Below the pieces are notes generated by a model. The model did not search any database. It saw only the letters and a program-made list of their open reading frames with translations, and was not told the DNA's origin. From assembly GCA_025965475.1 (NCBI GenBank), contig JAOPWV010000105.1:320-64319 (forward strand): a stretch of DNA of 64,000 bases, read 5' to 3'. Both the position numbers and the translations under genes were made by a program. The stretch comes from Frankiales bacterium (GTDB lineage: Bacteria; Actinomycetota; Actinomycetes; Mycobacteriales; SCTD01). Shown here piece by piece: positions 32,004-48,061 of this stretch; positions within the stretch are counted from its first letter, which is position 1; each line of letters starts with the position of its first letter.

Positions 32004-32626
32004 ACAACGCCACGCTCGGGGTCCTCGCGCGGATCCGGGCCGATCGGCCGACAGCCACGCCGGGCGAGCGCTGCGAGATGTGTGCCGCGCCGATCGCGGA
32101 CGCGCACTCCCACGTCGTGAACCTCGGCAGCCGCTCGCTGCTGTGCACCTGCCGGGCCTGCTACCTGTTGTTCACCCACGATGACGCCACCCTGTCCTAT
32201 CGGGCGGTGCCGGACCGCTACCTGTCGTTCCCGGCGCTGGCGCCGGCGGTCTGGGACGAGCTGCAACTGCCGGTGGGCACCGCGTTCCTGTTCCTGAACT
32301 CCCACCTCGAGCGCATCGTGGCCTTCTATCCCGGACCAGCCGGGGCGACGGAGTCGGACCTCCCCCTCGAGGCCTGGGGCCGCGTGGTGGCGGCCGCCCC
32401 GTCGCTCTCCGCCCTGCGGCCGGACGTGGAGGCGGTCCTGGTCCGCGCCACCGGCCAGGACATCGCCTGCTTCCTCGTCCCGATCGACGTCTGCTACGAG
32501 CTGGTCGGCCACCTGCGGCGGCTGTGGCGCGGCTTCGACGGCGGGCAGGACGTACGCCGCCGGCTCGACGAGTTCTTCGCCGGCATCGCCGCGCGGAGCA
32601 AGCCGGCACCGGAGCACCAGCCGTGA
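32000..32626 (+). CDS. conserved hydrogenase-cluster protein of unknown function (N-terminal Cys cluster)
   Basis: ATG at 32000 overlaps the upstream stop (ATGA), in the frame of track ORF 31661..32626. The N-terminus has CEMCAAPIADAHSHVV...LLCTCRACYLLF. Confidence 0.75.
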   Translation: MNNATLGVLARIRADRPTATPGERCEMCAAPIADAHSHVVNLGSRSLLCTCRACYLLFTHDDATLSYRAVPDRYLSFPALAPAVWDELQLPVGTAFLFLNSHLERIVAFYPGPAGATESDLPLEAWGRVVAAAPSLSALRPDVEAVLVRATGQDIACFLVPIDVCYELVGHLRRLWRGFDGGQDVRRRLDEFFAGIAARSKPAPEHQP

Positions 32627-33261
32627 CCGAACTGGCCTTCACGGTGCTCGACGTGCAGCCGCAGGCGCACGCCGCGGCGCCGCACATGCTCTTCCGGCTG
32701 CGCGTCACCGAGAGCAGCGGTGCGTGCGTGCACGCCATGGCATTGCGCTGCCAGCTGCGGATCGAGCCGCAGCGCCGGGCCTACGAGCCACGGGAGCAGG
32801 CCGGACTCGAGGACCTGTTCGGCACCGCCGAGCGCTGGGGCCAGACGGCGAAGCCGTTCCTGTGGACCCATGCCTCGACGATGGTGCGCGGCTTCGAGGG
32901 CAGTCACGAGTTCGACCTGCCCGTGGCCTGCACCTACGACTTCGAGGTCAGCGGCACGAAATACCTGCATGCGCTGGCCGGCGGCGAGGTCCCCCTGGTC
33001 CTGCTGTTCAGCGGGACCGTGTTCACCCGCGGCGCGACCGGCTTCGCCGTCGAGCAGCTGTCCTGGTCCCTGGAGGCGGACACCCGGATGCCGGTGCGGG
33101 TGTGGCGGGACCTGATGGACCTGTACTTCCCGAACAGCGGCTGGATCCGCCTGGACCGGGACACCCTGGACGCGCTGCTCCGCTACAAGGCCTCGCGGGC
33201 ACTCACCTCGTGGGAGCAGGCCCTCGACCAGCTGCTGCCGGCCGAGGAGCGCGTGTCATGA
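32623..33261 (+). CDS. conserved hydrogenase-cluster protein of unknown function
   Basis: GTG at 32623 overlaps the upstream stop (GTGA), in the frame of track ORF 32524..33261. The composition is protein-like (VTELAFTVLDVQPQAHAAAPHMLFRLRVTE...). Confidence 0.7.
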   Translation: MTELAFTVLDVQPQAHAAAPHMLFRLRVTESSGACVHAMALRCQLRIEPQRRAYEPREQAGLEDLFGTAERWGQTAKPFLWTHASTMVRGFEGSHEFDLPVACTYDFEVSGTKYLHALAGGEVPLVLLFSGTVFTRGATGFAVEQLSWSLEADTRMPVRVWRDLMDLYFPNSGWIRLDRDTLDALLRYKASRALTSWEQALDQLLPAEERVS

Positions 33262-34625
33262 GCCTCACCGCGGCCCGCCGCGTCGCCGACGCCGTCCTGT
33301 ACGAGGGCTACCTGCTCTACCCCTACCGGGCATCGTCGCCGAAGAACCAGCTGCGCTGGCAGTTCGGGATCCTGGGCCCGGCCGGCGCCGTGCAGGCCGG
33401 CGTGGGCGAGGAGCCGTCGATGCGTGCCCAATGCCTGCTCGACAGCCCGGACGCCTCGGGGCGGCTCGACGTGCAGCTGCGTTTCCTGCAGGTGCAGGCG
33501 CGGACCGTCGAACGCCGTGACGGCGGCCAGTACGTCGGTGTGGAGGAGCTCGACGTCGCCGGCACGCGGTGGATCGGCTGGCACGAGGCCGTCGAGCGGG
33601 AGGTGCCGGTCCTCGACGTGCCGGTGGCCGACCTGCTCACCGGCCGGACCGTGACCGTGGCCGTGCCGGGCGGTGAGGAGTGCGAACTGCTCCACGACGG
33701 GGCGGACGTGGTGGGCCGGCTCGTCCGCAGGCGCTGGCCCCTGCAGGCAGAGCTGTTCCTGACCGCCCGACGCGGGATCGACCCCCGACTGCTGGTCGTC
33801 TCTGTCGCCGTCGACAACGAGACGGTCTGGCCAGGCGAGGGTGCGCCGGCGCCGGCTGCCTCGCCGCGCGATGTCGCTGCCCGGGGCTCGTTCATCGGGA
33901 CCCACCTGCTGCTGGCCGCCCGGGGGGCGGAGTTCGTCTCGCTGCTGGACGGGCCGCAGTGGTCCGCGGACGACGCCGCGGCCTGCGTGCAGTCACGGTG
34001 CTGGCCGGTGCTCGTGCTGGACGACCAGGGCCGGGACGCGGTCCTGGTCTCGCCCATCATCCTGGCCGAACGGCCGGTCGTCGCACCGGAGAGCGCCGGC
34101 GACCTGTTCGACGCCACCGAGATCGACGAGATCCTGACCTTGCGCATCATGACCATGACGGACGAGGAGAAGGCGGACGCGCGCGGCACGGACCCCCGCG
34201 CCGCCGCGATCATCGACCGTTGCGACGACATGACCCCGGCGGGCCTGAAGCGGCTGCACGGTACACGCCGCTCGACCGACGATGAGCCGGACCGAGAGAG
34301 GGTTCCGTGGTGGGACCCGGGATCGGACGCCTCCGTCTCCCCCGGCACGGACGCGGTGGACATCGCCGGCACCGCCGTCGCGAAGGGCAGCCGCGTGCTG
34401 CTGCGGCCGACGCGTCGGGCGGATGCCCAGGACCTGTTCCTCGCCGGGATGGTCGGCGTCGTCACCGCCGTCTACGCCGACGTCGACGGCGGGACGCATG
34501 TGGCGGTGGTGCTGGAGGACGATCCGGCGAGCGACCTGCACGAGTGGTACGGGCGCTACTACTACTTCGGACCGGATGAACTCGAACCGCTCCCGGCGCG
34601 CACCTCGACCGGACCGCAGCCATGA
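33258..34625 (+). CDS. conserved hydrogenase-cluster protein of unknown function (455 aa)
   Basis: ATG at 33258 overlaps the upstream stop (ATGA), in the frame of track ORF 32724..34625. The product begins MSLTAARRVADAVLYEGYLLYPYRASSPKNQLRWQFG. I recognise no catalytic motif. Confidence 0.75.
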   Translation: MSLTAARRVADAVLYEGYLLYPYRASSPKNQLRWQFGILGPAGAVQAGVGEEPSMRAQCLLDSPDASGRLDVQLRFLQVQARTVERRDGGQYVGVEELDVAGTRWIGWHEAVEREVPVLDVPVADLLTGRTVTVAVPGGEECELLHDGADVVGRLVRRRWPLQAELFLTARRGIDPRLLVVSVAVDNETVWPGEGAPAPAASPRDVAARGSFIGTHLLLAARGAEFVSLLDGPQWSADDAAACVQSRCWPVLVLDDQGRDAVLVSPIILAERPVVAPESAGDLFDATEIDEILTLRIMTMTDEEKADARGTDPRAAAIIDRCDDMTPAGLKRLHGTRRSTDDEPDRERVPWWDPGSDASVSPGTDAVDIAGTAVAKGSRVLLRPTRRADAQDLFLAGMVGVVTAVYADVDGGTHVAVVLEDDPASDLHEWYGRYYYFGPDELEPLPARTSTGPQP

Positions 34626-35131
34626 CCGCCCGGGTACTCGTCGCCGGCGTCGGCAACATCTTCCTGCGCGACGACGGGTTCGGCTGCGAGGCGGCACGGC
34701 GTCTCACGGCCCGGGAGCTGCCGGACGGCGTGCGCGTCGTCGACTACGGCATCCGCGGCATGCACCTGGCCTACGACCTGCTTGACGGGTACGACGCGCT
34801 CGTCGTCCTCGACGCGCTCCCCCGTGGCGGTCAGCCGGGCGACCTCGTCGTCCTGCAGGTCGGTCCCGAGGACCTGGGCGACGCCGAACTCGACGCGCAC
34901 GGGATGGAGCCCACCGCCGTACTCGCCAGCCTGTCGTGGCTCGGCGGCCAGCTGCCGCCGACGTACGTCGTCGGCTGTGAGCCGGCGGATATCTCGGAGG
35001 GCATGGGTCTGTCGCCTCCGGTCGAGGGCGCAGTCGACGCCGCGGTCGAGCTGGCCCGGCGCCTCCTGGACGACGAACTCACCCGCCTGCCCGGCCGGGC
35101 CGACGCAACCACGAGAAAGGACCGCACATGA
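34622..35131 (+). CDS. hydrogenase maturation endopeptidase (HupD/HyaD/HybD family)
   Basis: ATG at 34622 overlaps the upstream stop. The product contains VLVAGVGNIFLRDDGFG...VVDYG...LVVLDA...DAHGM, typical of large-subunit C-terminal proteases. Confidence 0.9.
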   Translation: MTARVLVAGVGNIFLRDDGFGCEAARRLTARELPDGVRVVDYGIRGMHLAYDLLDGYDALVVLDALPRGGQPGDLVVLQVGPEDLGDAELDAHGMEPTAVLASLSWLGGQLPPTYVVGCEPADISEGMGLSPPVEGAVDAAVELARRLLDDELTRLPGRADATTRKDRT

Positions 35132-35247
35132 GGACCATCGGCGTGATCACCGTCGCCGTCGGCGCCGTGGGGGTGGCTTTCGGAGCCCTGCTCGTGGTGC
35201 GCTCCATCCCGGACATCCAGCGCTACCTGCGCATCCGATCGATGTAG
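35128..35247 (+). CDS. 39-aa single-pass membrane micro-protein (absent from ORF track)
   Basis: ATG at 35128 overlaps the protease stop (ATGA). Hand translation gives MRTIGVITVAVGAVGVAFGALLVVRSIPDIQRYLRIRSM, ending at TAG 35245..35247. It has one hydrophobic helix followed by a basic tail, and high GC3. Confidence 0.55.
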   Translation: MRTIGVITVAVGAVGVAFGALLVVRSIPDIQRYLRIRSM

Positions 35248-35256
35248 GCCGGCGTC

Positions 35257-35664
35257 GTGCACGAGATCGGTTACTGCGAAGGCGTCGTCGAGGCGGTCGT
35301 ACGACGGGCTGCCGGCCGCCCGGTGGCCCGGATCGGTGTGCGCATCGGCGCCCTGCACCGCATCGTGCCCGACGCGTTCGCCCAGTCGTTCCAGCTGGTG
35401 GCGGGTGGTACCAGCGCCGAGGACGCCGTCACCGAGCTCGTCGTCGTACCCGCCCAGGCGACCTGCCGCGGGTGCGGTGCCGTCTTCGAGACGCCCGACC
35501 CCTCAGCGGTCTGCCCGGACTGCGGAGATCTCGACGTCACCGTCACGGGAGGCGACGAGGTCGTCCTGGAATGGGTCGAGTACGCCGACGCCGCGGCCGC
35601 GGAGCAACCGGACGAACGGGTGCCCGCCCATACCCACCAGCACTCGCCAGCCGGAGGTCGATAG
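35257..35664 (+). CDS. hypA: hydrogenase nickel-insertion protein HypA
   Basis: A GTG start gives an M-H-E N-terminus, the Ni-binding motif. The zinc site is CRGCG-x12-CPDCG. An unusual C-terminal tail contains PAHTHQHSPAGG. Confidence 0.9.
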   Translation: MHEIGYCEGVVEAVVRRAAGRPVARIGVRIGALHRIVPDAFAQSFQLVAGGTSAEDAVTELVVVPAQATCRGCGAVFETPDPSAVCPDCGDLDVTVTGGDEVVLEWVEYADAAAAEQPDERVPAHTHQHSPAGGR

Positions 35665-35666
35665 CC

Positions 35667-35942
35667 GTGTGCCTCGCCATCCCCGGGCAGATCGTCCAGC
35701 TGCTGCCGGGCAACAGCGATCAACTCGCCCTCGTCGACGTGGTCGGCGTGAAACGCCGGATCAACATCGGCCTCCTGGAGGAGGGCGGTGCGAAGGTCGG
35801 GGACTGGGTCCTCATCCACGTCGGCTTCGCGATGTCCGTGGTCGACGAGCGCGAGGCGGCAGAGGCCCTGTCGATGCTGGAGATGATGGGCAAGACCTTC
35901 ACCGACGAGCTGCAGGCCGTCGCCGAGTCGAGCATCCCGTGA
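35667..35942 (+). CDS. hypC: hydrogenase assembly chaperone HypC
   Basis: GTG at 35667 gives an (M)CLAIPGQIV N-terminus with the essential Cys2. It lies in the frame of track ORF 34782..35942. Confidence 0.9.
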   Translation: MCLAIPGQIVQLLPGNSDQLALVDVVGVKRRINIGLLEEGGAKVGDWVLIHVGFAMSVVDEREAAEALSMLEMMGKTFTDELQAVAESSIP

Positions 35943-36178
35943 CCGATCCGTCGTCGAGCTGCGCGACCGGCCCTGGCTGCATCACCTGCGGCGACGTGGC
36001 GTTGCCGCTGACGGTGGTCGAGGTCACCGGCCCGGACGCCCGGTGCCGCACCGACGACGGCCGGGAGGAATTGGTGGCCACCGAACTCGTCGGCGTCGTC
36101 GCGGCCGGCGACGTCTTGCTGGTGCACGCCGGCGTCGCTCTCGAACACCTTGCCCGGCGGAACGGGGAGTCCCCATGA
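35939..36178 (+). CDS. second HypC/HupF-like chaperone with Cys-rich N-terminal extension
   Basis: GTG at 35939 overlaps the hypC stop (GTGA). The product is VTDPSSSCATGPGCITCGDVALPLTVVEV...GDVLLVHAGVALE, a HypC-like barrel sequence with C-x5-C-x2-C in place of the N-terminal MC motif. Confidence 0.7.
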   Translation: MTDPSSSCATGPGCITCGDVALPLTVVEVTGPDARCRTDDGREELVATELVGVVAAGDVLLVHAGVALEHLARRNGESP

Positions 36179-37308
36179 CCATGCGCTTCGTCGACGAGTT
36201 CCGCGACCCCGAGTTGGCCGCGGTGCTGGGTCGGGAGATCACAGCCCTGTGCGAGCCGGGCCGGCACTACAAGGTGATGGAGGTGTGCGGCGGGCACACG
36301 CACACGATCTACCGGTACGGCGTGCAGGACCACCTGCCCGACGACATCGAGCTCGTGCACGGGCCGGGCTGCCCCGTCTGCGTGATCCCGATGGGACGGG
36401 TCGACGACGGCATCGCCATCGCCGAGCAGGACGGCGTCATCCTCACCTGCTTCGGTGACATGATGCGGGTCCCCGGCGGCAACGGCTCGTTCCTCGACGC
36501 GAACGCCCGTGGCGCGGACATCCGGATGGTCTACTCGCCGCTCGACGCGCTGCGCATCGCCCGCGACAACCCGGGACGGCAGGTCGTCTTCTACGCCATC
36601 GGCTTCGAGACGACGGCACCGTCGACCGCCCTGACCGTGCTGCGCGCGAAGAAGGAGGGGGTCAGCAACTTCTCCGTCTTCTGCAACCACGTGACGATCA
36701 TCCCCGCCATCAAGGCCATCCTGGACTCCCCCGACCTGCGGCTGGACGCCTTCATCGGGCCGGGGCACGTCTCCACGGTCATCGGCTGCCGGCCCTACGA
36801 GTTCATCCCCCGGCAGCACGGCAAGCCGCTCGTCTGCGGCGGCTTCGAACCGCTGGACCTGCTGCAGTCGGTCTACATGATCATGAGGCAGTTGGCCGAG
36901 GGCCGGGCCGAGGTGGAGAACCAGTACACCCGCGTCGTGGCCTACGACGGCAACCCGGTCGCACTGAAGGTGCTGGCCGAGGTGTTCTCGCTGCGGCCGT
37001 ACTTCGAGTGGCGCGGCCTCGGTTCGATCTCCTCCTCCGCGCTGCAGCTGTCCGAGCGGTATGCCGAGTACGACGCCGAGCTGCGCTACGACGTCCCGGG
37101 CCTGCGCGTCGCCGACCCCAAGGCGTGCCAGTGCGGCGAGGTGCTCAAGGGCGTCCTCAAGCCGTGGGAGTGCAAGGTCTTCGGTACGGCGTGCACGCCG
37201 GAGACCCCCATCGGCACCTGCATGGTCTCCAGCGAAGGCGCGTGCGCGGCGTACTACAACTACGGCCGCTACGCGAAGCAGCGGCTCCACCTGGAGATCG
37301 CGACATGA
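36175..37308 (+). CDS. hypD: hydrogenase maturation protein HypD
   Basis: ATG at 36175 overlaps the upstream stop. Motifs are MEVCGGHTH, GPGCPVCV, FETTAP and the C-terminal cysteines CQCGEVLKG...CKVFGTACTPE...CMVSSEGAC. Confidence 0.95.
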   Translation: MTMRFVDEFRDPELAAVLGREITALCEPGRHYKVMEVCGGHTHTIYRYGVQDHLPDDIELVHGPGCPVCVIPMGRVDDGIAIAEQDGVILTCFGDMMRVPGGNGSFLDANARGADIRMVYSPLDALRIARDNPGRQVVFYAIGFETTAPSTALTVLRAKKEGVSNFSVFCNHVTIIPAIKAILDSPDLRLDAFIGPGHVSTVIGCRPYEFIPRQHGKPLVCGGFEPLDLLQSVYMIMRQLAEGRAEVENQYTRVVAYDGNPVALKVLAEVFSLRPYFEWRGLGSISSSALQLSERYAEYDAELRYDVPGLRVADPKACQCGEVLKGVLKPWECKVFGTACTPETPIGTCMVSSEGACAAYYNYGRYAKQRLHLEIAT

Positions 37309-38387
37309 CCAGGCAGATCACCGAGGACCAGGTCGGCGAGCGGATCGAGGCGATCCGGCGGCGGCCCCAGCGCTTCCGCGACGAGCGGGTGACCATGGCG
37401 CACGGCGCCGGCGGAAAGGCGTCGCGGGCGCTCGTGGAGGGCCTGATCGTGCCGCTGCTCGACAACCCGGCACTGGCCGCGCTGTCCGACGCCGCGTCGA
37501 TCGACGTCGGGCAGGAGCGGCTCGCCTTCACGACCGACGCCTTCGTCGTACGCCCGATCTCCTTCCCCGGCGGCTCCATCGGCGAGCTCGCCGTCAACGG
37601 CACGATCAACGACCTGGCGGTCTCCGGAGCCCGCCCCGTGGCACTGTCGGCAGCCCTGATCCTCGAGGAGGGATTGTCCGCGGAGGTCCTGTCCGCCCAG
37701 GTCGAGGCGATGGCCCGGGCCGCCCGGACCGCAGGCGTGCCGGTGGTCGCCGGCGACACGAAGGTCGTCGAACGGGGCAAGTGCGACCAGATGTACATCG
37801 TGACGACCGGCGTCGGCGTCGTCGCGCCGGAGACGCAACTCGCGGCCGACCGGGTACGGGCGGGCGACAAGGTGCTGGTGTCGGGGACCATCGGCGACCA
37901 CGGCGTGGCGATCATGCTCGCCCGTGGCGAACTGGACATCGAGGCGGACGTGCACAGCGACACCCGATCCCTGTGGGACCTGGTGCGTGAGGTCCTCGCG
38001 CGCTGCGGCACCGGCGTCCACTGCATGCGTGACGCGACCCGGGGCGGGGTGGCGACGGTGCTCAACGAGATCGCCATGGCGGCCGAGGTCGGCGTCGTGA
38101 TCGCCGAGGAGCGCGTCCCGCTCCGGCCGGAGGTGATGGGGGCGGGCGAGATCCTGGGCATCGACCCGCTGTACGTCGCGAACGAGGGCAAGCTGGTGGC
38201 GTTCGTGGCGCCGGAGCACGCGGACGCCGCGCTGGCCGCGATGCGCGCGACGCCGGCCGGTGAACAGGCCGCGATCATCGGCGAGGTCCGGGACGAGCCA
38301 CCGGGCCGGGTTCTCGGCCGCACCGGCTTCGGCGGCCACCGCATGATCGACATGCTGGTCGGCGACCCGCTGCCGCGGATCTGCTGA
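37305..38387 (+). CDS. hypE: hydrogenase maturation protein HypE
   Basis: ATG at 37305 overlaps the hypD stop. It has an AIR-synthase-like fold (MAHGAGG, NDLAVSGA) and the diagnostic C-terminal ...DPLPRIC. Confidence 0.95.
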   Translation: MTRQITEDQVGERIEAIRRRPQRFRDERVTMAHGAGGKASRALVEGLIVPLLDNPALAALSDAASIDVGQERLAFTTDAFVVRPISFPGGSIGELAVNGTINDLAVSGARPVALSAALILEEGLSAEVLSAQVEAMARAARTAGVPVVAGDTKVVERGKCDQMYIVTTGVGVVAPETQLAADRVRAGDKVLVSGTIGDHGVAIMLARGELDIEADVHSDTRSLWDLVREVLARCGTGVHCMRDATRGGVATVLNEIAMAAEVGVVIAEERVPLRPEVMGAGEILGIDPLYVANEGKLVAFVAPEHADAALAAMRATPAGEQAAIIGEVRDEPPGRVLGRTGFGGHRMIDMLVGDPLPRIC

Positions 38388-38401
38388 CTGGAGGCGTCAG
38401 C
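38383..38401. terminator. short hairpin GCTGAC-N7-GTCAGC built from two convergent stop codons
   Basis: GCTGAC (38383..38388) pairs with GTCAGC (38396..38401). It contains the hypE TGA and the TGA of the minus-strand gene. There is no U-tract. Confidence 0.2.
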
Positions 38402-38909
38402 CGATGACCGCGAGCCCGGCGTCGGTGAGCACCCGCTCGTCCTTCTCGGTCCGCAGCAGAGGCTGCGGGCCCCGGTAGAGGGCCGCGAGGCCGGCCGGCG
38501 CGATGCCGAGTTCCCGCGCGGTCTGATGCAGCTCCAGCTTGTGCATACGCCCGCCTGCGGCGGACACCCGCCGCAGCAGGTTCCCGACCTGCGCACCGTC
38601 CGGGCCGGCCGACTCCTGGGGCTCCGCATCGGCGAGCAGCGCGTCGATCTGGCGCTGGAGCCCACGCAGCGCGAACCGAAGCCGGGTCGCCTCGTCGAGC
38701 TCCTGCGGCGCGTCGCCCGCGCCCTGCCAGGTCCGCTTGGGGTGCCGGCGCAGGTACTCCTGCTCCAGCTCCAGCATGCGCTCCGTGTGCCGGGCGTACT
38801 GCTCGGCCGTGCCGTGCAGGAAGACCCAGTTGCGCGTGGCATGCGCGTGCGTCCCCTGCTGCTCCAGCTCCTCGTCCGACAGCTCGCGGGCAGGCCGTCC
38901 CTCGCTCAT
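38397..38909 (-). CDS. hypothetical protein (acidic N-terminus, last gene of box operon)
   Basis: The 170-aa ORF has a start that overlaps the amidohydrolase stop (ATGA). The product begins MSEGRPARELSDEELEQQGTHAHATRNWVFLHGTAEQYARHTERMLELEQEYLRRHP. I cannot assign a function. Confidence 0.6.
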   Translation of the reverse strand: MSEGRPARELSDEELEQQGTHAHATRNWVFLHGTAEQYARHTERMLELEQEYLRRHPKRTWQGAGDAPQELDEATRLRFALRGLQRQIDALLADAEPQESAGPDGAQVGNLLRRVSAAGGRMHKLELHQTARELGIAPAGLAALYRGPQPLLRTEKDERVLTDAGLAVIG

Positions 38910-39778
38910 GGCGTCTCCTCCGCATCACCAAGTCCCGCATACACCCGCCGCGCGTTCTCGCCGAGCACGAGAGGGATGACGTCCTCCGGGATACCGAGCC
39001 CGGCGACCGCCCGGGCGTTGGTGGCGGTGCCCGGCACCCCGGGCCAGTCCGTGGCGAAGATCCACTTGCGGGCGAGCCGGCCCAGGTCGAACCGGGCGTA
39101 GTACTCCGGCAGCCGCTTGGGCGGCAGGCCGGACAGCTCGATCCAGACGTTCGGGTGCGTCAGCGCGAGGAAGGCGGCCGCGTCGTACCACCAGCCCCGG
39201 CCGCCGTGCGCGAGCACGATGGTCAGGTCAGGGAAGTCGCGCAGCACCGTGTCGGCGTGCACCGGGTCGGCAAGGGCGTTGGTCGAGCCGGGGAACGTGC
39301 TGGTCCCGCAGTGCACGACCAGCGGCACCTGCCGTTCGACGAGCACCTCGTACGCCGGGTAGAGCGCGGCGTCGTCGAGCCGGAAACCACCATGAACCGG
39401 GTGCAGCTTGAGCGCGGCACCGCCGAGGTCGAGCTGGCGCCGTACCTCCCGCGCAATCGGGTAGTGCAGGTGCGGGTTGACGTTGGCGACGGGGCGGAAC
39501 AGCACCGGGTCGTGCTCGACGATCGGCAGTAGGTCGTCGAACCGCTGGTAGCCGGTGGCCTTGGGGCTGTACTCGCAGAACAGCAGCGCGACGTCGACAC
39601 CCTCGCGGCGGAACAGCTCCGCCAGCCGGGCCGGCCGCGGGACCCCCTCGGGATCCCAGACGTCCTCGAGGATGCCGGCGGGCCCGAAGTTCTCCGCCCA
39701 GGCGAGCCACGCGGGCGCGAGACTGTCGAGCCGCGGCACGTGGACGTGGGCGTCCACCAGCAGGTGGCCGTCGAGCAC
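38906..39778 (-). CDS. metal-dependent amidohydrolase-fold (TIM-barrel) hydrolase
   Basis: The product has LLVDAHVHVP (an HxH metal motif) and then ...LKLHP...VVHCG...VLAHGG...FATDWP, a pattern typical of the amidohydrolase-2 type family. Confidence 0.8.
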   Translation of the reverse strand: MLDGHLLVDAHVHVPRLDSLAPAWLAWAENFGPAGILEDVWDPEGVPRPARLAELFRREGVDVALLFCEYSPKATGYQRFDDLLPIVEHDPVLFRPVANVNPHLHYPIAREVRRQLDLGGAALKLHPVHGGFRLDDAALYPAYEVLVERQVPLVVHCGTSTFPGSTNALADPVHADTVLRDFPDLTIVLAHGGRGWWYDAAAFLALTHPNVWIELSGLPPKRLPEYYARFDLGRLARKWIFATDWPGVPGTATNARAVAGLGIPEDVIPLVLGENARRVYAGLGDAEETP

Positions 39779-39781
39779 GCG

Positions 39782-40117
39782 TCAGCCCTCCTGGCTCTGC
39801 ACGAAGGGCGTGTCGACCCCGACCGGGCCCACCTTGCGGGAGCCACCCGGCGCGCCGAGCGGGCCGTCACGGCCGGGCAGGGGTTCGGCGAAGAAGACCC
39901 GGTTGTCGTCGATGTAGGCCTTCATGTCCTCCGGCACGCGGCGGTCCTGGCTGATCGCCTCCACCGGGCAGACCGGCTCGCATGCGCCACAGTCGATGCA
40001 CTCCTTGGGGTTGATGTAGCTCTTGCGCTCCCCCTCGTAGATGCAGTCGACCGGGCACTCGTCCATGCACGCCTTGTCGTTGACGTCGATGCAGGGGCCG
40101 GCGATGACGTAGGGCAC
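39782..40117 (-). CDS. fdxA: 7Fe ferredoxin ([3Fe-4S][4Fe-4S], FdxA-type)
   Basis: The product begins MPYVIAGPCIDVNDKACMDECPVDCIYEG...CIDCGACEPVCPVEAI, the classical 7Fe ferredoxin cysteine pattern. Confidence 0.9.
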   Translation of the reverse strand: MPYVIAGPCIDVNDKACMDECPVDCIYEGERKSYINPKECIDCGACEPVCPVEAISQDRRVPEDMKAYIDDNRVFFAEPLPGRDGPLGAPGGSRKVGPVGVDTPFVQSQEG

Positions 40118-40129
40118 GGGTACTCCGGG

Positions 40130-41146
40130 TCAGGCGAGAGGGGCGGGGACAGGTGCGGGTGCGGCATCCGTGGAGTGACCCGGGAACAGCTGCGCCTCCG
40201 GGTCGATCTCCACAGCGGCATTGTTCACCGCCGTGGCGACCTCGCCGAACCCGACACTGATCAGGCGCACCTTGCCTGCGTAGTCGGTGATGTCACCGGC
40301 GGCGTAGACCCGCGGCAGGCTGGTGCGCATCCGGCTGTCGACCACCAGGTGCCGGTTGTCGTGCAGCTCCAGGCCCCACTCGCGCATCGGACCGAGATCG
40401 GCGAGGAAGCCCAGGGCCGCGACGAGGCGCTGGCACGGCAGCACCACCGGGCCGTCGAGGTCCTTCGCCGTCACGTGAACGGCGTCAACGCTTCCGGCTC
40501 CCAGGACGGCCGTCACCTCGGCGTCCACGAGGATGCGGGCGCCGGAGGCGCGGACGGCATCGACGGTCGCCGCGTGCGCCCGGAACGCCTTGCGGCGGTG
40601 GACCAGGGTCACCGAGCGCGCGGTCGGCGTGAGCGCCAGCGCCCAGTCGCAGGCGCTGTCGCCACCGCCGACGATGACGACGTCGGTGCCGTCGTAGTCG
40701 GCGAGCCGTGGGACGAAGTACGCCAGGCCCCGGCCGAGGAACTCCTCGCCGGTCGGCAGCGGTCGTGGCTCGAAGGTCCCGATCCCACCGCTGATGACGG
40801 CGGCGCCGCAGGTGATGCGGCTGCCGGCACTCGTCTCGACGACCAGCGGGCCGTCCGGCCGGTGCTCCAGGGACTGCGCCGCCTCCCCGAGCAGGTATGC
40901 CGGGTCGTACCGGGCGGCCTGCTCGACCAGCCCGGCCACGAGGTCCCGGCCGCGGATGCTCGGGAAGCCGGCGACGTCGTAGATCGGCTTCTCCGGGTAC
41001 ATGGCCGTCACCTGGCCACCCACCTCCGGCAGCGAATCCACCAGCGCGGTCCGCAGGCCCCGCACCCCGGCGTAGTAGGCGCCGTACAGGCCGACCGGAC
41101 CGGCGCCCACGATGAGCAGGTCGACGTCGACGTCCTGTGCGGTCAC
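40130..41146 (-). CDS. thioredoxin-reductase-like ferredoxin-NADP(+) reductase
   Basis: Track ORF 40130..41209 was trimmed to GTG at 41146. Motifs are the FAD site LLIVGAGPVGLYGAYYAG, the NADPH site VVIVGGGDSACDWA and C-terminal YAAGDI. There is no CxxC redox pair, so it looks like an FNR rather than a TrxB. Confidence 0.8.
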   Translation of the reverse strand: MTAQDVDVDLLIVGAGPVGLYGAYYAGVRGLRTALVDSLPEVGGQVTAMYPEKPIYDVAGFPSIRGRDLVAGLVEQAARYDPAYLLGEAAQSLEHRPDGPLVVETSAGSRITCGAAVISGGIGTFEPRPLPTGEEFLGRGLAYFVPRLADYDGTDVVIVGGGDSACDWALALTPTARSVTLVHRRKAFRAHAATVDAVRASGARILVDAEVTAVLGAGSVDAVHVTAKDLDGPVVLPCQRLVAALGFLADLGPMREWGLELHDNRHLVVDSRMRTSLPRVYAAGDITDYAGKVRLISVGFGEVATAVNNAAVEIDPEAQLFPGHSTDAAPAPVPAPLA

Positions 41147-41150
41147 CGCG

Positions 41151-42857
41151 TCACACCCGCGCGGTGTCGAACGACGCCCGCGTGCCGCTGCCGAACCGGC
41201 GCAGCGCACCGTCGGGTCCGGAGGCGTTGGGCCGCAGGAAGATCCAGTTCTGCCAGGCGGTGAGGCGTCCGAAGATCTTGGTCTCGACGGTCTCCGGGCC
41301 GACGAACCGGTGGTTGGCCTCCAGGCCGGTCAGCGCGTCCGGGGAGAGCGAGGCACGCTCCTCGAGCGCGATCCGCAGCTCGTCCTCCCAGTCCAGGTCG
41401 TCGGGCGCGACGGTGACCAGGCCCAGGTCCATCGCCGCCGCGGCGTCCAGCGGCTCACCGGCGGACGCGGCCGCCGCCGCGAGATCGTCGTCGTGCCCGT
41501 AGAAGCGGGACTCCAGCCGGCTCAGGCCGTTGCCCATCGGGTAGCGGCCCAGGTTGGCGGGTCCGACCGTCAGGGCCGCCGGCCCGTCGGCCGCGTCGAT
41601 GCCCGGGATCGGGTCCTCGGGGATGCCGTCGAGCATGTACTGGCGGTCGCAGGCGAGCGCGAGCTCGAGCAGCGTCCCCGCGAAGCAGCTGCCCGGCTCG
41701 ATCACGGCGATCAGGCTCCGGCTCGTCACGTCGAGCCGCTTGAACGTCCGCTTGAGGAAGTGGGTGACCTCGTTGACGAACCAGTCGCCGGCCAGTTCGT
41801 CGAGCTGTGCGTCGTACGCCAGCAGACGCCGCGCGTCGCCCCGGGTCCTGATGACCCAGGTGCCGAGCTGCAGCTCGTTCGTGCGCAGATGCAGGATCAG
41901 CTCGTCGAGCTCCCTGGCCAGCGCCATCGGGTAGTAGTCGACGCCCTCGTCCAGGACGCCCGCCGCGTCGGCGGGCGGATCCTGGTCCGGTCCCGTGACG
42001 AGAAGGTCCACCCGCCGCGCGGCACGGTCCAGCCGTGCCTCGACGTGCCGGTAGGTGATCCGGTCGTCGGTCTCCTCGCGCTGCAGCGGGCTGAGGGTGA
42101 CCCCGCGGCCGCCCTCACGGGTCGAGTGGGCTGCCGCCTCCTCGGCCCGGGTGCGCACGGCCTCCGCGAACTGCCCGCGCGGGACGCTCTCGTCGACCAG
42201 GCCCCAGTCGACCGCCGTCCGCCCGCGGGCGCCTTCGGTCTTCGTCGCGAACACGTCGGCCCGGTCCTTGCGGACGTGCCGCTTGTCGACCACGCGCGTC
42301 AGGCCGCCCGTGCCGGGCAGTACGCCGAGCAGCGGCACCTCGGGCAGCGACACCGCCGACGAGCCGTCGTCCACGAGGACGATGTGCTCGCAGGCCAGCG
42401 CGAGCTCGTACCCGCCGCCGGCCGCGGTGCCGTTGAGCGCCGCGATGTAGGTCTGGCCGGAGACCGCGCTCGCGTCCTCGATGCCGTTGCGGGTCTCGTT
42501 GGTGAACTTGCAGAAGTTCACCTTCCAGGCATGCGAGGACTGCGCGAGCATCCGGATGTTCGCCCCGGCACAGAACATCCGGTCCATCCCGCCGGTCACG
42601 ACGACCGCACCGACCTCCGGATGCTCGAAGCGCAGCCGCTGCACCGCGTCGTACAGCTCGATGTCCACGCCGAGGTCGTAGCTGTTCATCTTCAGGTCGT
42701 AGCCCGGCACGAGCCCGCCGTGCTCGTCCACCGTGAGCGTCAGCGTCGCGACACCGCCCTCCGTCTCCAGCGTCCAGTGCCGGTAGCGGTCCGGAGCGGT
42801 TGCGAAGACCACCCGCGCGGGAGTCGCCGTGCCGGGTCCGCTCTCGAGCAACGTCAT
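41151..42857 (-). CDS. boxC: 2,3-epoxybenzoyl-CoA dihydrolase BoxC (crotonase superfamily)
   Basis: The roughly 568-aa product is a double crotonase-like protein (FCAGANI, AALNGTAAGGGYELALACE). It lies next to a benzoate-CoA ligase and near boxB. I prefer ATG at 42857 because GGAG lies 6 nt upstream. ATG at 42863 is an alternative. Confidence 0.8.
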   Translation of the reverse strand: MTLLESGPGTATPARVVFATAPDRYRHWTLETEGGVATLTLTVDEHGGLVPGYDLKMNSYDLGVDIELYDAVQRLRFEHPEVGAVVVTGGMDRMFCAGANIRMLAQSSHAWKVNFCKFTNETRNGIEDASAVSGQTYIAALNGTAAGGGYELALACEHIVLVDDGSSAVSLPEVPLLGVLPGTGGLTRVVDKRHVRKDRADVFATKTEGARGRTAVDWGLVDESVPRGQFAEAVRTRAEEAAAHSTREGGRGVTLSPLQREETDDRITYRHVEARLDRAARRVDLLVTGPDQDPPADAAGVLDEGVDYYPMALARELDELILHLRTNELQLGTWVIRTRGDARRLLAYDAQLDELAGDWFVNEVTHFLKRTFKRLDVTSRSLIAVIEPGSCFAGTLLELALACDRQYMLDGIPEDPIPGIDAADGPAALTVGPANLGRYPMGNGLSRLESRFYGHDDDLAAAAASAGEPLDAAAAMDLGLVTVAPDDLDWEDELRIALEERASLSPDALTGLEANHRFVGPETVETKIFGRLTAWQNWIFLRPNASGPDGALRRFGSGTRASFDTARV

Positions 42858-42893
42858 GTGCATCTCCGTCCGCCGAGGGTCGGTCGCCTCTCC

Positions 42894-42942
42894 AAACACA
42901 CTACGGGTTCGTGCATCTGCGTCAATGCTGTGTAGCAGGTTT
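42894..42942. promoter_or_regulatory. box operator-like element, site 1: AACACACTAC-N27-GTAGCAGGTTT
   Basis: CTAC lies at 42901..42904 and GTAG at 42932..42935, exactly 27 nt apart. The flanks are identical to site 2 (10 nt plus 11 nt). It sits between the bcl stop and the boxC start. Confidence 0.5.
42898..42925 (-). promoter_or_regulatory. candidate boxC promoter TTGACG-N16-TAGTGT (minus strand)
   Basis: The minus strand reads TTGACG (42925..42920), a 16-nt spacer, then TAGTGT (42903..42898). The bcl stop codon TGA is embedded in the -35 hexamer. The promoter lies inside operator site 1. Confidence 0.45.
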
Positions 42943-44505
42943 CTGGACGAGCCGGTCGGCCACCGCGTCCCGCAGCCGGAACCGCTGGATCTTGCCGGTG
43001 GCCGTCTTCGGCAGCTCGTCGAGGACCACCACGGCCCGCGGCCGCTTGAACGCGGCCAGACCCTCGCGGCACCAGGCCACCAGCTCGTCGGCGTCCACCG
43101 TCCGGCCGGCGGCCGGCACCACGCAGGCGACCGGCTTCACCAGCCCATCGCCGTCCGGGGCACCCACGACGGCCACCTCGGCGACCGACGGGTGCTGCAG
43201 CAGCCGCTCCTCCACCTCGGCCGGGGACACCCAGATGCCGCCGGCCTTGAGCAGGTCGTTGGACCGGCCCATGCACGTGTAGTACCCGTCGACGGACCGG
43301 GTGTAGGTGTCGCCGGTGCACAGCCACTCCCCCTGGAAAACGGCGCGTGAGGCGTCCGTGCGGCACCAGTACCCGGAGGCGATCGAGGCACCGCGCACGA
43401 ACAAGCCGCCGGGCTCCCCGTCGGGCACCCGCGCACCGGTCTCGTCGCGCAGCTCGATGTCGTACCCGTGCACCGGCGTCCCCGACGTGCCGGGACGCAC
43501 GGCTCCTGCGGTGTTGGACAGGAAGATGTGCAGCGCCTCGGTGGACCCGATGCCGTCGAGGATGTCGACCCCGAACCGGCTGGTGAACCGGTGGTACAGC
43601 GTCGGTGGCAGGGCCTCGCCGGCCGAGGCGCAGAGCCGGACGCTGGAGAAGGTGTCCGCGGGCAGGTCCGAAGCGAGCAGCGCGGCGAAGAAGCTCGGGC
43701 TGCCGAAGAACAGCGTCGGCGCATCGGCCGCCATCCGCTCTCGGACCACCTCCGGGGACGGCCGCCGCGGCTCGAGGACCGTCGTCGCACCGACGGAGAG
43801 GGGGAACAGCGCGGAGTTTCCGAGGCCGTAGGCGAAGAACAGCTTCGCGACGGAGAAGCAGACGTCCTCGGGGCCGATGCGCAACACGTCACGGCCGTAC
43901 GTCTCGCAGACGGCCCGCAGGTTCTCGTGCCGATGCATCGCCGCCTTCGGCATCCCCGTGGTCCCCGACGTGTACAGCCAGAGCGCCGGCGTGTCCGCGG
44001 TCGTCCTGCCGGGCGGTCCGGGCGGCGTGCCGGCACCCGCGGCGAGCACGTCGTCCCACGCGTGCACGGCCACCCCGGGCGGGGTCCGCACCTCCGCGCC
44101 ATCCACGGTGATCACGTGCGCGAGGTCGGGCGCGGCCGCCATCGCCGTGGAGGCGGCGTCGGCGAACTCGGGCGTCACCACGAGGACGCGGGCGCCGGAG
44201 TCCGCGACCACCTTGGTCAGCTCGGGTCCGGTCAGCATGGTGGAGACGGGCACCGCGACGGCGCCGCTGCGGAAGGCCCCCAGGACGCCGGCCAGCAGCT
44301 CCGGCCGGTCGGAGGCCACGAACATCACCCGCTCGCCCGCTCGGACGTCGAGCGCGCGCAGACCCGCCGCCACCCGGCAGGACGCATCCTGCAGCTGCCC
44401 ATAGGTCTGCGTCCGGCCGGCACTGCGCACCGCCACCCGCTCGCCGAGGCCGGCATCGACCTGACGGTCGACGAGGTACTGCGCGGCATTGAACGCTTCG
44501 CTCAT
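42922..44505 (-). CDS. benzoate-CoA ligase family (adenylate-forming enzyme)
   Basis: Track ORF 42922..44568 was trimmed to ATG at 44505 (MSEAFNAAQYLVD). The AMP-binding motifs are LYTSGTTGMPKA, GDTY and GKIQRF. Overall it resembles benzoate/4-hydroxybenzoate-CoA ligases. It is the first gene of the box operon. Confidence 0.85.
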   Translation of the reverse strand: MSEAFNAAQYLVDRQVDAGLGERVAVRSAGRTQTYGQLQDASCRVAAGLRALDVRAGERVMFVASDRPELLAGVLGAFRSGAVAVPVSTMLTGPELTKVVADSGARVLVVTPEFADAASTAMAAAPDLAHVITVDGAEVRTPPGVAVHAWDDVLAAGAGTPPGPPGRTTADTPALWLYTSGTTGMPKAAMHRHENLRAVCETYGRDVLRIGPEDVCFSVAKLFFAYGLGNSALFPLSVGATTVLEPRRPSPEVVRERMAADAPTLFFGSPSFFAALLASDLPADTFSSVRLCASAGEALPPTLYHRFTSRFGVDILDGIGSTEALHIFLSNTAGAVRPGTSGTPVHGYDIELRDETGARVPDGEPGGLFVRGASIASGYWCRTDASRAVFQGEWLCTGDTYTRSVDGYYTCMGRSNDLLKAGGIWVSPAEVEERLLQHPSVAEVAVVGAPDGDGLVKPVACVVPAAGRTVDADELVAWCREGLAAFKRPRAVVVLDELPKTATGKIQRFRLRDAVADRLVQKPATQH

Positions 44506-44561
44506 GGCTCTGCACTCCAGCAGTCGCGGTCCGTCAGGAGTCTGCCTCTCCTGTGACCCGG

Positions 44562-44609
44562 AACACACTACAGATCATCGGGCCGGCATCATCGACATGT
44601 AGCAGGTTT
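44562..44609. promoter_or_regulatory. box operator-like element, site 2: AACACACTAC-N27-GTAGCAGGTTT
   Basis: CTAC lies at 44568..44571 and GTAG at 44599..44602, 27 nt apart. It sits in the 152-bp divergent region between bcl (start 44505) and the PaaX-type regulator (start 44658). Confidence 0.5.
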
Positions 44610-44657
44610 GACCGGGACCTGCATGTCCGCGGTGGCGGCGCGTGGTGCAATTCGGGG

Positions 44658-45500
44658 GTGGATGACAGACCCCGCTCGCGCCGGCGCGAGACCGGCGCGG
44701 CCAGCGCGCGCTCGCTGCTGCTGACCGTCCTCGGGGAGTTCGTGCTGCCCCGGCACGCCGCCGCCTGGACCGCCGCGCTCGTGACCGCGTTGGCCGAGCT
44801 CGGCGTCGAGGAGAAGGCGGCCCGGCAGGCGCTGTCCCGCACGGCCGCCGAGGGCCTGCTCACGTCCGAGCGCGAGGGACGCCGGGTGCGCTGGCACCTG
44901 ACACCCGCCGGCACCCGGCTGCTCGAGGAGGGCACCGAGCGCATCTACGGATTCGGCCGGCGCGTCGAGGAATGGGACGGACGCTGGCTCATCCTCACGG
45001 TCAGCGTGCCGGAGACGCAGCGCCAGCTCCGCCACCGGCTGCGGACCCGGTTGACCTGGGCCGGCCTCGGGTCGCCCCTGCCCGGCCTGTGGGTGTCGCC
45101 GTACGCCGACAAGGAGAAGGAGGTCGCCGTCGTCATCGAGGAGCTCGGCGTCGAGTCGTTCTCCTTCACCGGGCCGTTCGGGATCGTCGGGGACCAGCAG
45201 AAGGTGGTGGCGGACGCCTGGGCGCTGGATGCCGTGGAGGAGCGGTACGCCGCGTTCCTGCGGGCGTTCCGCAGCGAGAAGGCCGCCACGACCACCGCTG
45301 CCTTCCGGGACCAGGTCCGGCTCGTACAGGAGTGGCGGCGCTTCCCGTTCCTCGACCCCGCACTCCCGGCGCCGCTGCTGCCCGCGACGTGGCCCGGACC
45401 GGCGGCCGCAGCGCTGTTCCACGCACGGCACGACCACTGGCACGCCGCCGCGCAGGAGCACTGGGACGAGCTGGCCGGGAACGCCGAGCTGCGCAGCTGA
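44658..45500 (+). CDS. PaaX-family transcriptional regulator
   Basis: Track ORF 44553..45500 was trimmed to GTG at 44658. It has a winged-helix N-terminus (SARSLLLTVLGEFVLP...ELGVEEKAARQALSR) and a PaaX-type C-terminal domain (WDGRWLILTVSVPE...RLRTRLTWAGLG...LWVSP). Confidence 0.85.
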   Translation: MDDRPRSRRRETGAASARSLLLTVLGEFVLPRHAAAWTAALVTALAELGVEEKAARQALSRTAAEGLLTSEREGRRVRWHLTPAGTRLLEEGTERIYGFGRRVEEWDGRWLILTVSVPETQRQLRHRLRTRLTWAGLGSPLPGLWVSPYADKEKEVAVVIEELGVESFSFTGPFGIVGDQQKVVADAWALDAVEERYAAFLRAFRSEKAATTTAAFRDQVRLVQEWRRFPFLDPALPAPLLPATWPGPAAAALFHARHDHWHAAAQEHWDELAGNAELRS

Positions 45501-45994: not shown

Positions 45995-47458
45995 CTAGAA
46001 GCGCACGTAGTCGAACTCCACGGACATCTCGTTGATGCCCTGCGGCGGCGGCGTCAGCCAGGACGCGAAGCTCCCCGGCTCGTGATGCGGGACCATCAAC
46101 GCGCCGACCCGGCTGCGGTCGTCCGGGGTGGGCAGCCACTCGTCCGTCCGGGCCTGCCAGGCCGCCTCGTCGACGACCTCCCCGGCCGGGGTGACGTGGT
46201 GTCCGGCGTACGCCCCGACCTGGCGGTAGAAGCCCTCGTGCGGCAGAGCCAGCCGCTCGTCGAGGCCGGCCTCCTCCAGGGCCTGGTTCCAGCGGCGGAC
46301 ACCGTTCTCGCAGTCGGCGACGTACTCGTCGCGCAGGTCGAGGTTCAAGGCGCCGAGCAGCGGCACGGTCTTCTGGACGATGCGGCCGTCCTCGACGACG
46401 TTCATCTCGCGGGTCTGGTCGAGAAGGACGTGGTCGTCCTTGCGCCGGGTCTCGCCCCAGCGGCCCTTGAGCCCGGAGGTGAAGTAGTTCCCGGCGTTCG
46501 TCGACTGCTCCGACCCGAACAGGTCCATGGACACGGCGAATTGGAAGTTCAGGTACTTCTGGATGACGGCGAGCGGGATCGCGCCGTGGTCCCAGAGGTC
46601 GTCGCCGGGGTGGTCGCGCATGATCTGCGCGGTGCGCTCCACGATGCGCTGCACGCCGGTCGTGCCGACGAACATGTGGTGCGCCTCCTCCTTGAGCATG
46701 AACTCGCAGGTGCGCGCCAGCGGGTCGAAGCCGGACTCCTTGAGGGTGCCGAGCTGGTACTTGCCGTCCCGGTCCGTGAAGTACGTGAACATGAAGAACG
46801 TCAGCCAGTCGGGCGTGTCCTCGTTGAACGCCCCGAGGATGCGCGGGCTGTCGGGGTCGCCGGAGTGCCGCTTGAGCAGTTGCTCGGCCTCCTCACGGCC
46901 CTCCCGGCCGAAGTAGGCGTGCAGCAGGTAGACCATCGCCCACAGGTGACGCCCCTCCTCGACGTTCACCTGGAACAGGTTGCGCATGTCGTACAGGCTC
47001 GGTGCGGTCGAGCCGAGGTGGCGCTGCTGCTCGACGGACGCGGGCTCGGTGTCCCCCTGCACGACGATCAGCCGCAGCAACTCGGCGCGGTACTCCCCCG
47101 GCACCGTCTGCCAGGCCGATTCCCCCGCATGCTGCCCGAAGGCGATGCGCCGGTCCGGCTCGGGCTCGGCGAGGAAGATCCCCCAGCGGTACTCCTCCAT
47201 CGGCACCCGGTCGAAATGCGCCCAGCCGTCCCGCCCGACGGCCGTCGCGGTGCGCAGGTACACGTCCTGCGTCGGGATCGCGGGACCGAGTTCCTTCCAC
47301 CAGTCCATGAACTTGGGCTGCCAGCCCTCGAGCGCGCGCTGCAGGCGGCGGTCGGTGTTCAGGCCCACGTTGTTCGGGATCCGCTGTGAGTAGTCAACCG
47401 GGTTGAGTGGCCCGTCGGGATCGGGCGCCGAGCCCGTGTGCGTGGTGGGTGCCGTCAT
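45995..47458 (-). CDS. boxB: benzoyl-CoA 2,3-epoxidase oxygenase component BoxB (diiron)
   Basis: Track ORF 45995..48112 was trimmed to ATG at 47458, with GGAGG 6 nt upstream. The product contains YSQRIPNNVGLN...LEGWQPKFMDWW and the diiron ExxH pairs VEEGRHLW and KEEAHHMF. Confidence 0.9.
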   Translation of the reverse strand: MTAPTTHTGSAPDPDGPLNPVDYSQRIPNNVGLNTDRRLQRALEGWQPKFMDWWKELGPAIPTQDVYLRTATAVGRDGWAHFDRVPMEEYRWGIFLAEPEPDRRIAFGQHAGESAWQTVPGEYRAELLRLIVVQGDTEPASVEQQRHLGSTAPSLYDMRNLFQVNVEEGRHLWAMVYLLHAYFGREGREEAEQLLKRHSGDPDSPRILGAFNEDTPDWLTFFMFTYFTDRDGKYQLGTLKESGFDPLARTCEFMLKEEAHHMFVGTTGVQRIVERTAQIMRDHPGDDLWDHGAIPLAVIQKYLNFQFAVSMDLFGSEQSTNAGNYFTSGLKGRWGETRRKDDHVLLDQTREMNVVEDGRIVQKTVPLLGALNLDLRDEYVADCENGVRRWNQALEEAGLDERLALPHEGFYRQVGAYAGHHVTPAGEVVDEAAWQARTDEWLPTPDDRSRVGALMVPHHEPGSFASWLTPPPQGINEMSVEFDYVRF

Positions 47459-47471: not shown

Positions 47472-47516
47472 TTGTCTACGACTAGGTGGCGATACGTCAT
47501 CAGTCTGTAGCATGTC
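47472..47516. promoter_or_regulatory. box operator-like element, site 3: TTGTCTAC-N27-GTAGCATGT
   Basis: CTAC lies at 47476..47479 and GTAG at 47507..47510, again exactly 27 nt apart. It lies 14-58 nt upstream of the boxB start, in the boxB/CBS divergent region. Confidence 0.45.
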
Positions 47517-47632
47517 CGCCGGATGCACAACCCGGGAGGACCGTTGAGTTCTCCGCCCCGGCGCGTACTGTCAGCCACGAGATCGGGCAACCGTCTGTTC
47601 GCGTGCGTGTGTACGGATGGAGGTGCGGTGCG

Positions 47633-48061
47633 ATGAAGATCGCCGAGGTGCTCCGGCTCAAGGGTTCTGCCGTCGTCACGATCACCCCGGAGACCCCGGT
47701 CTCCGGGCTCGTGGACCAACTGGCCCAGCACGGCGTGGGCGCCCTCGTGGTCTCGGCGGACGGGCAGTCCCTCGACGGCATCGTCAGCGAGCGGGACGTC
47801 GTACGGCGGCTGGCCGCCCACGGCGCCGGGCTGCTCGACCACACGGTCGCGGACATCATGACCAGGTCGGTCCGCACCTGCGGCCTGAAGGACACCGTCG
47901 ACGAGCTCATGGCGCTGATGACCGAGCAGCGGGTCCGGCACGTGCCGGTCCTCGAGGACGGCAAGCTCGTCGGCCTCGTGAGCATCGGCGACGTCGTGAA
48001 GCAGCAGATCGACGTCCTCAAGACCGAGCGCGACCAGCTCGAGGCCTACATCACGACCTGA
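47633..48061 (+). CDS. CBS-domain pair protein
   Basis: ATG at 47633 lies in the frame of track ORF 47486..48061. There are two CBS motifs (GVGALVVSADGQSLDGIVSERDV and VRHVPVLEDGKLVGLVSIGDV). Confidence 0.85.
   Translation: MKIAEVLRLKGSAVVTITPETPVSGLVDQLAQHGVGALVVSADGQSLDGIVSERDVVRRLAAHGAGLLDHTVADIMTRSVRTCGLKDTVDELMALMTEQRVRHVPVLEDGKLVGLVSIGDVVKQQIDVLKTERDQLEAYITT

Follow-up and report, generated by a model that had tools for sequence, protein, structure and literature searches.

In the characterised aerobic benzoyl-coenzyme A (CoA) or box pathway, a benzoate-CoA ligase feeds BoxAB, and BoxC and the aldehyde dehydrogenase BoxD carry out the steps that follow. BoxB, the diiron epoxidase of the system, needs two electrons per turnover, which are normally supplied by BoxA, an NADPH reductase in which two [4Fe-4S] clusters and flavin adenine dinucleotide (FAD) are fused in one protein. 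In a reference cluster, that of Mycetohabitans rhizoxinica plasmid pBRH01, the genes are arranged as boxC-boxB-boxA, plus the ligase gene. Genome surveys call box clusters without boxA incomplete or non-functional, and the absence of BoxA has been taken as the mark of an incomplete cluster and an impediment to degradation (PMC10803450). Here we describe such a locus on a stretch of 64,000 nucleotides (nt) from a Frankiales bacterium (GCA_025965475.1, contig JAOPWV010000105.1, positions 320-64,319 of the forward strand), referred to below as the window, with a G+C content of ~72%. It carries genes for a benzoate-CoA ligase, BoxB and BoxC together with those for a TrxR-type ferredoxin-NADP+ reductase (FNR) and a 7Fe ferredoxin, and it probably represents an actinobacterial box pathway in which the latter two proteins supply BoxB with electrons in place of BoxA. 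A non-orthologous replacement of BoxA by two proteins had been proposed for this DNA from its letters alone (the sequence-only reading), and the proposal gains support from conserved gene linkage, which 40 or more of the 80 nearest FNR loci show, and from the lack of BoxA in all of 54 other BoxB-bearing Actinomycetota genomes (0/54).

Genes were assigned by Pfam and NCBIfam profile scans of the window proteins, and the junctions between them were read from the sequence. The oxygenase component, the diiron benzoyl-CoA 2,3-epoxidase BoxB (45995..47458, minus strand), reaches 739 bits against TIGR03225 (cut-off 499) with the profile covered in full (1-471), is 61% identical to the annotated Mycetohabitans BoxB, and starts at an ATG downstream of a GGAGG ribosome-binding site. 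The benzoate-CoA ligase (42922..44505, minus strand; TIGR02262, 539 bits, cut-off 375) and the 2,3-epoxybenzoyl-CoA dihydrolase BoxC (41151..42857, minus strand; TIGR03222, 863 bits, cut-off 712) are identified just as clearly. Separated from the ligase gene by 64 nt, boxC is followed on the same strand by the genes for the FNR, which begins with a GTG codon 4 nt past the boxC stop, for the ferredoxin (12 nt further), for a metal-dependent hydrolase (3 nt further) and for a DUF6158 protein, whose start codon shares the letters ATGA with the stop of the hydrolase gene (-4 nt). With gaps of only 4, 12 and 3 nt and a final overlap of 4 nt, the run of five genes that opens with boxC and closes with DUF6158 looks translationally coupled. 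A gene of the PaaX family lies between this operon and boxB, which is a transcription unit of its own, with 1.5 kb between the end of boxB and the start of the ligase gene and 2.95 kb from start to start. Profile hits and junctions are in full agreement with the sequence-only reading as to the seven genes, their positions and order on the minus strand, their spacing of -4 to 64 nt (12 nt or less after boxC), and boxB as a separate unit ~3 kb upstream on the same strand.

The flavoprotein encoded next to boxC (40130..41146, minus strand; Pyr_redox_2) is, judging from its nearest solved relatives, a TrxR-type FNR and is predicted to reduce ferredoxin. It scores 294 bits against 2ZBW, 272 against 3LZW and 268 against 6GAS, and the scores run from 294 to 264 bits over 2ZBW, 3LZW, 6GAS and 8C16, or from 294 to 218 bits when 3AB1 and 5YGQ are included. 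No true thioredoxin reductase scores above 92 bits. The translation contains three isolated cysteines and no CxxC motif, and the lack of this motif, together with the far higher scores to FNRs, rules out a true thioredoxin reductase. The motifs GGGDSACDW and HRRKAFRAH are present, the second of which we take to be the NADPH-binding motif of the family. In the Bacillus subtilis enzyme (BsFNR), Tyr50 on the si-face and the C-terminal residues His324/Ser325 stack on the flavin (PMC10526003). These residues are conserved in the window protein, where MYPEK aligns with LY50PEK and GHST with LH324S325T of 3LZW. The best-matching structure, 2ZBW, is the TrxR-type FNR of Thermus thermophilus, which has been tied to the CYP175A1 monooxygenase electron-transport system of Mandai et al. 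2009 (PMC10526003).

The adjoining gene (39782..40117, minus strand) encodes a 7Fe ([3Fe-4S][4Fe-4S]) ferredoxin of the FdxA type, with 148 bits to NF045480 (FdxA_Actino, cut-off 125). Its best solved relative, the 7Fe ferredoxin of M. smegmatis (2V2K), is matched over the full length with 116 bits and with all seven cluster cysteines aligned. The ferredoxin of the Thermus system mentioned above is reportedly of the 7Fe type as well. Three FdxA-type genes are found in the genome, namely that of the box operon, one on contig C135 (69% identical) and a housekeeping-type copy on contig C69 (57% identical), which sits on a very long branch in the ferredoxin tree. The C69 gene rules out that the box ferredoxin is the housekeeping FdxA, and since the genome has this separate housekeeping form, the box ferredoxin appears to be a specialised paralogue.

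The window encodes no BoxA-like protein, as the sequence-only reading had noted, and the same holds for the genome as a whole (3.89 Mb in 215 contigs, 98% complete), in which the best match to TIGR03224 reaches 31.8 bits (cut-off 459). A tblastn search of the genome, for which the BoxA annotated on Mycetohabitans rhizoxinica pBRH01 was the query, gave 42 bits at best, and TIGR03224 run on that plasmid as a positive control gave 682 bits. Equally, BoxA was found in none of the other BoxB-bearing genomes of a 400-genome sample of the phylum (0/9) or of a 400-genome sample of the class (0/23), nor in any of the 22 genomes reached via FNR-linked box loci. With the positive control working, a canonical boxA hidden elsewhere is ruled out for the assembled genome and for these 54 others. 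The missing BoxA is a phylum-wide state and not a quirk of the Frankiales genome.

The second gap in the pathway concerns BoxD. The contig carries no aldehyde dehydrogenase gene, in line with what had been read from the window, and all 19 matches to PF00171 in the genome lie on other contigs. Neither of the profiles for aldehyde dehydrogenases of the BoxD/PaaZ type finds a member in the genome, the best matches being 155 bits to NF008868 (cut-off 444) and 133 bits to TIGR02278 (cut-off 563); the absence of BoxD from this genome is real. Among 22 related genomes a true BoxD is present in 13 and absent from nine, including the closest relative, and in eight related loci it is encoded near the box cluster (NF008868, 636 bits). 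Five of the BoxD-type matches (G405, G414, G415, G418, G420) carry one in-frame TGA, which may stem from an alignment running across the stop of the upstream gene. The genome holds both box and paa clusters (paaA/paaC on contig C137) and yet has no aldehyde dehydrogenase of the PaaZ/BoxD type, so that both pathways would need a non-orthologous aldehyde dehydrogenase, unless the gene lies in the unassembled 2%.

Co-occurrence of the FNR/ferredoxin pair with boxB/boxC in other actinobacteria, which the sequence-only reading had suggested profiling, was assessed in a scan seeded with the FNR that covered 185,579 species, each represented by a single genome. Of the 80 closest loci returned, at least 40 have boxB and/or boxC within 9 kb and the ferredoxin immediately after the FNR, and several further ones lie on contigs that end inside the same cluster. 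The linkage extends to dozens of actinobacterial genera, among them Streptomyces, Nocardia, Mycobacterium, Actinomadura, Actinospica, Georgenia, Kineosporia, Thermomonospora, Blastococcus and Modestobacter; nearest to the window are uncultured Mycobacteriales and Frankiales (79% identity for FNR, 81% for BoxB). The gene order is shuffled and the gene set kept: the amidohydrolase gene can lie between ligase gene and boxC (L046), or boxB directly before the FNR gene (L070, L073, L083). In the FNR tree, 22 of the 24 members of the clade that holds the window protein are box-linked, and over the whole tree the box label changes 14 times, compared with 27.8 times in shuffles.

An unbiased view was obtained from a sample of the class that starts from BoxB and comprises 13 box loci, with which five more loci from other classes were compared. 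The ferredoxin is present in nine of the 13; one of these nine has a full-length adjoining FNR and one a truncated FNR. All ferredoxin-linked BoxBs fall into one clade of 45 in the BoxB tree (99% support), 41 of its members being ferredoxin-bearing, and the BoxBs of other classes branch below it. At one locus without ferredoxin (L178, G584:C1:5152193-5153594) boxB is broken into two overlapping parts that lie in different reading frames, which probably reflects either a pseudogene with a frameshift or an error of assembly.

A second copy of the module is found in the same genome. The FNR family has exactly two members there, the box copy and one on contig C135, where an operon (L156:1171-16743) encodes a CoA ligase, an ABC transporter, PaaA-like and PaaC-like proteins, an enoyl-CoA hydratase, a 7Fe ferredoxin, a thiolase/ChsH2-like protein, an acyl-CoA dehydrogenase and a second DUF6158 protein. 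The FNR gene is divergent from this operon, and PaaE is absent there; canonical paa genes with a PaaE-like reductase lie on contig C137. The same arrangement occurs in Prauserella flavalba (L179: PaaA-PaaB-PaaC-PaaD-enoyl-CoA hydratase-ferredoxin-thiolase-MaoC-FNR), whose ferredoxin and FNR are 63-64% identical to those of the window. None of the 80 closest FNR loci is a cluster of the C135 type. We infer from these operons that the same FNR/ferredoxin module may replace the fused reductase in each of the two CoA-ester diiron epoxidase families, and its position beside a PaaA-type epoxidase without PaaE is the strongest indirect support for its role as electron donor. A wider proposal, which we put forward as a tentative possibility, would be an electron-input kit of Actinomycetota, made up of the 7Fe ferredoxin, usually DUF6158 and often the FNR, that replaced BoxA for BoxB and PaaE for PaaABC-like enzymes, with DUF6158 as a hitherto unrecognised component that may act, for example, as a docking or coupling factor or as a ferredoxin-linked regulator.

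The pair is proposed as donor to BoxB because BoxB is the only enzyme of the cluster that needs an external reductant, its usual partner BoxA is absent, and the two genes are tightly packed with the operon and kept in linkage with box genes. In the pathway envisaged, the ligase would activate benzoate to its CoA ester, and electrons from NADPH would pass to the FAD of the operon FNR and on to the operon 7Fe ferredoxin, which would dock on BoxB and reduce its diiron site. BoxB would then convert benzoyl-CoA with O2 to 2,3-epoxybenzoyl-CoA, BoxC would open the ring to yield the semialdehyde and formate, and the semialdehyde would be oxidised by a non-orthologous aldehyde dehydrogenase of the genome. 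The ferredoxin would be an essential, specialised partner in this scheme and the FNR its dedicated but replaceable reductase; a PaaX-family repressor would take the place of BoxR, the amidohydrolase would be an accessory of the pathway, and DUF6158 would be tied to the ferredoxin module. We infer the direction of electron flow, NADPH as the donor and the contact between ferredoxin and BoxB from the make-up of the operon and its relatives.

Several points weigh against this assignment. The support for it is comparative genomics throughout, and a search seeded with the FNR biases the sample toward linked cases. Since more distant FNR-ferredoxin pairs adjoin genes for cytochrome P450, alcohol dehydrogenase (ADH) or aldehyde dehydrogenase (ALDH) or stand alone, the pair appears to be a general redox module of the oxygenase type that is not exclusive to BoxB. 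In the BoxB-first comparison, neither ferredoxin nor reductase lies near the box genes at four of the Actinomycetes loci or at any of the five from other classes, and no reductase was found among the 20 neighbouring open reading frames (ORFs) of the box clusters without ferredoxin; given these nine loci, BoxB can evidently be served by unlinked carriers. A close FNR was found nowhere in the genomes of family f122, which keep the ferredoxin (layout paaX / boxC-boxB-ligase-ferredoxin-amidohydrolase-PaaY-DUF6158). One f122 box cluster (L175, G688:C1, near 1613903-1614433) has an adjoining FNR fragment that covers residues 4-181 only. This suggests that the FNR was lost in f122, and the G688 fragment looks like decay under way. 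Because the BoxB-first loci and the BoxB tree keep the ferredoxin, and f122 does so without the FNR, we regard the ferredoxin as the likely conserved and specialised partner and the FNR as a frequent but apparently dispensable addition. If these points are taken further, FNR and ferredoxin could be a general-purpose redox module that merely travels with the box genes, and the electrons for BoxB could come from another source, such as the C137 PaaE or a ferredoxin system that is not linked to it. Such an arrangement would fit the company kept by the distant family members and the several box clusters without any linked carrier, and a PaaE-like reductase is indeed available on C137. However, the linkage has been held across many genera despite changed gene order, the same sets of genomes come together in the FNR tree and in the BoxB tree, a distinct FdxA for housekeeping is encoded elsewhere in the genome, and both FNR-family copies sit with oxygenases of the BoxB/PaaA family; we consider this explanation unlikely.

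Two other explanations were considered. The cluster might act on a substituted or different aromatic acyl-CoA, the different reductase then reflecting a different enzyme system, and the PaaX-type rather than BoxR-type regulator, the extra amidohydrolase and DUF6158 genes and the only ~60% identity of BoxB and BoxC to the proteobacterial proteins could be read in this sense. Against it, BoxB, BoxC and the ligase all score far over the curated equivalog or subfamily cut-offs, and a true BoxD stands beside the cluster in eight related loci, so that we give another substrate little credence. Alternatively, the pair might serve a downstream or side reaction, for instance by accepting the electrons released when 3,4-dehydroadipyl-CoA semialdehyde is oxidised, a reaction in which the amidohydrolase or DUF6158 might take part. 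That no aldehyde dehydrogenase of the BoxD/PaaZ type was found in the genome or in nine of the 22 related genomes, and that two uncharacterised genes come after the ferredoxin gene, would be in keeping with such a role. But the cluster encodes no aldehyde:ferredoxin oxidoreductase or other ferredoxin-dependent enzyme, the presence of FNR and ferredoxin does not follow the absence of BoxD (13 of the 22 genomes encode the pair and also BoxD), and the genome has its 19 ordinary aldehyde dehydrogenases. Moreover, by what is known of the family, Amidohydro_2 enzymes are hydrolases, decarboxylases or hydratases and not redox enzymes, and a side reaction of this kind seems very improbable to us.

The two genes that follow the ferredoxin gene can be placed more closely. 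The hydrolase (38906..39778, minus strand; Amidohydro_2, PF04909, 116 bits) stands as the uncharacterised accessory that the sequence-only reading had made of it, and the gene that had been left there without a family can now be named as DUF6158 (38397..38909, minus strand; PF19655, 58 bits); the two behave differently. The closest solved relative of the amidohydrolase is the uncharacterised protein 3IRS, a weak match exists to the hydratase LigJ (2GWG), and a comparison with NCBIfam gave no match. It occurs in box loci with and without ferredoxin, including those of Nonomuraea gerenzanensis, L168 and L171, and it behaves as an accessory of the box pathway that appears to track the box genes and not the ferredoxin. 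An anticorrelation of the amidohydrolase with BoxD was also considered, and no such pattern was seen across related loci and genomes. DUF6158, on the other hand, is present in seven of the nine ferredoxin-bearing box loci and in none of the nine without ferredoxin (0/9), so it appears to track the ferredoxin rather than the FNR or the box genes in themselves. In the family alignment the N-terminal segment is almost invariant and rich in histidines, and the window protein has no cysteines. An AlphaFold (AF2) model (predicted local distance difference test, pLDDT, 84.7) consists of an N-terminal helical hairpin, a linker helix and a winged-helix-like C-terminal domain, and a search of the PDB with this model returned no fold match with an E-value < 0.1.

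The regulatory gene between boxB and the ligase gene (44553..45500, plus strand, start codon uncertain) encodes a protein with PaaX, PaaX_M and PaaX_C domains. It scores 167 bits against TIGR02277, which is under the equivalog cut-off of 264, and is best classed as a member of the PaaX family that is not the PaaX equivalog. It is divergent from the ligase operon, and a homologue is similarly placed in most related box loci. Actinobacterial box clusters often encode, in addition, a hexapeptide-repeat protein that resembles PaaY and stays below the cut-off of TIGR02287 with 115 bits (L051, L056, L058, L061, L062, L072, L075, L100, L103, L109 and the f122 loci), and a homologue with 54% identity is encoded on contig C76 of the Frankiales genome. 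On either side, the locus is bordered by genes of other kinds. The 3' end of the box operon converges on hypE of a group 1h [NiFe]-hydrogenase cluster (28188-38387), with the two stop codons 9 nt apart. At the other end, the gene of a CBS-pair protein (47486-48061, plus strand) is divergent from boxB; its longest ORF begins 27 nt from the boxB start, and the likely true start (MKIAEV...) lies ~150 nt further inside.

The locus thus appears to be a real and conserved variant of the known box pathway. In the literature searched we found no description of this layout or of DUF6158, for which the association with the ferredoxin would provide a first functional context. The proposal names a concrete system of three proteins, BoxB, ferredoxin and FNR, and should the ferredoxin route be functional, a clade of soil Actinomycetota, with Streptomyces, Nocardia, Mycobacterium and Actinomadura among its members, is being under-called for aerobic benzoyl-CoA catabolism. 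Its main new content is the ferredoxin-centred module that seems to be common to the box and the PaaA-type system, and the link between DUF6158 and the ferredoxin.

Compared with BoxABC(D) of Aromatoleum (Azoarcus) evansii and the Burkholderiales, the Frankiales locus has an orthologous ligase, BoxB and BoxC, and the same chemistry is to be expected. It differs from these systems in having no BoxA, in a genome without BoxD, and in a regulator of the PaaX family instead of a helix-turn-helix (HTH) or BoxR-type one; furthermore, boxB lies apart from boxC, and genes for an FNR, a 7Fe ferredoxin, an Amidohydro_2 protein and DUF6158 are added. In its scores and its flavin-stacking residues the reductase resembles the homodimeric TrxR-type FNRs that go with small bacterial ferredoxins (2ZBW of Thermus, YumC, 3LZW, of Bacillus subtilis, and 6GAS and 8C16 of Bacillus cereus). 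Unlike those, its gene is embedded in a catabolic operon, and its proposed acceptor would be a diiron CoA-ester epoxidase, whereas the known FNRs serve P450, NrdI or general metabolism. With PaaABC(D)E the locus shares an oxygenase of the same diiron family (PF05138). The canonical PaaABC(D)E system differs in oxygenase architecture and substrate, and in its reductase PaaE a [2Fe-2S] domain is fused to an FNR of the plant type; the PaaA/PaaC-like operons of the Frankiales bacterium and of Prauserella have no fused reductase and carry the same FNR/ferredoxin family instead, which suggests that diiron CoA-ester epoxidases accept reductases of very different architectures.

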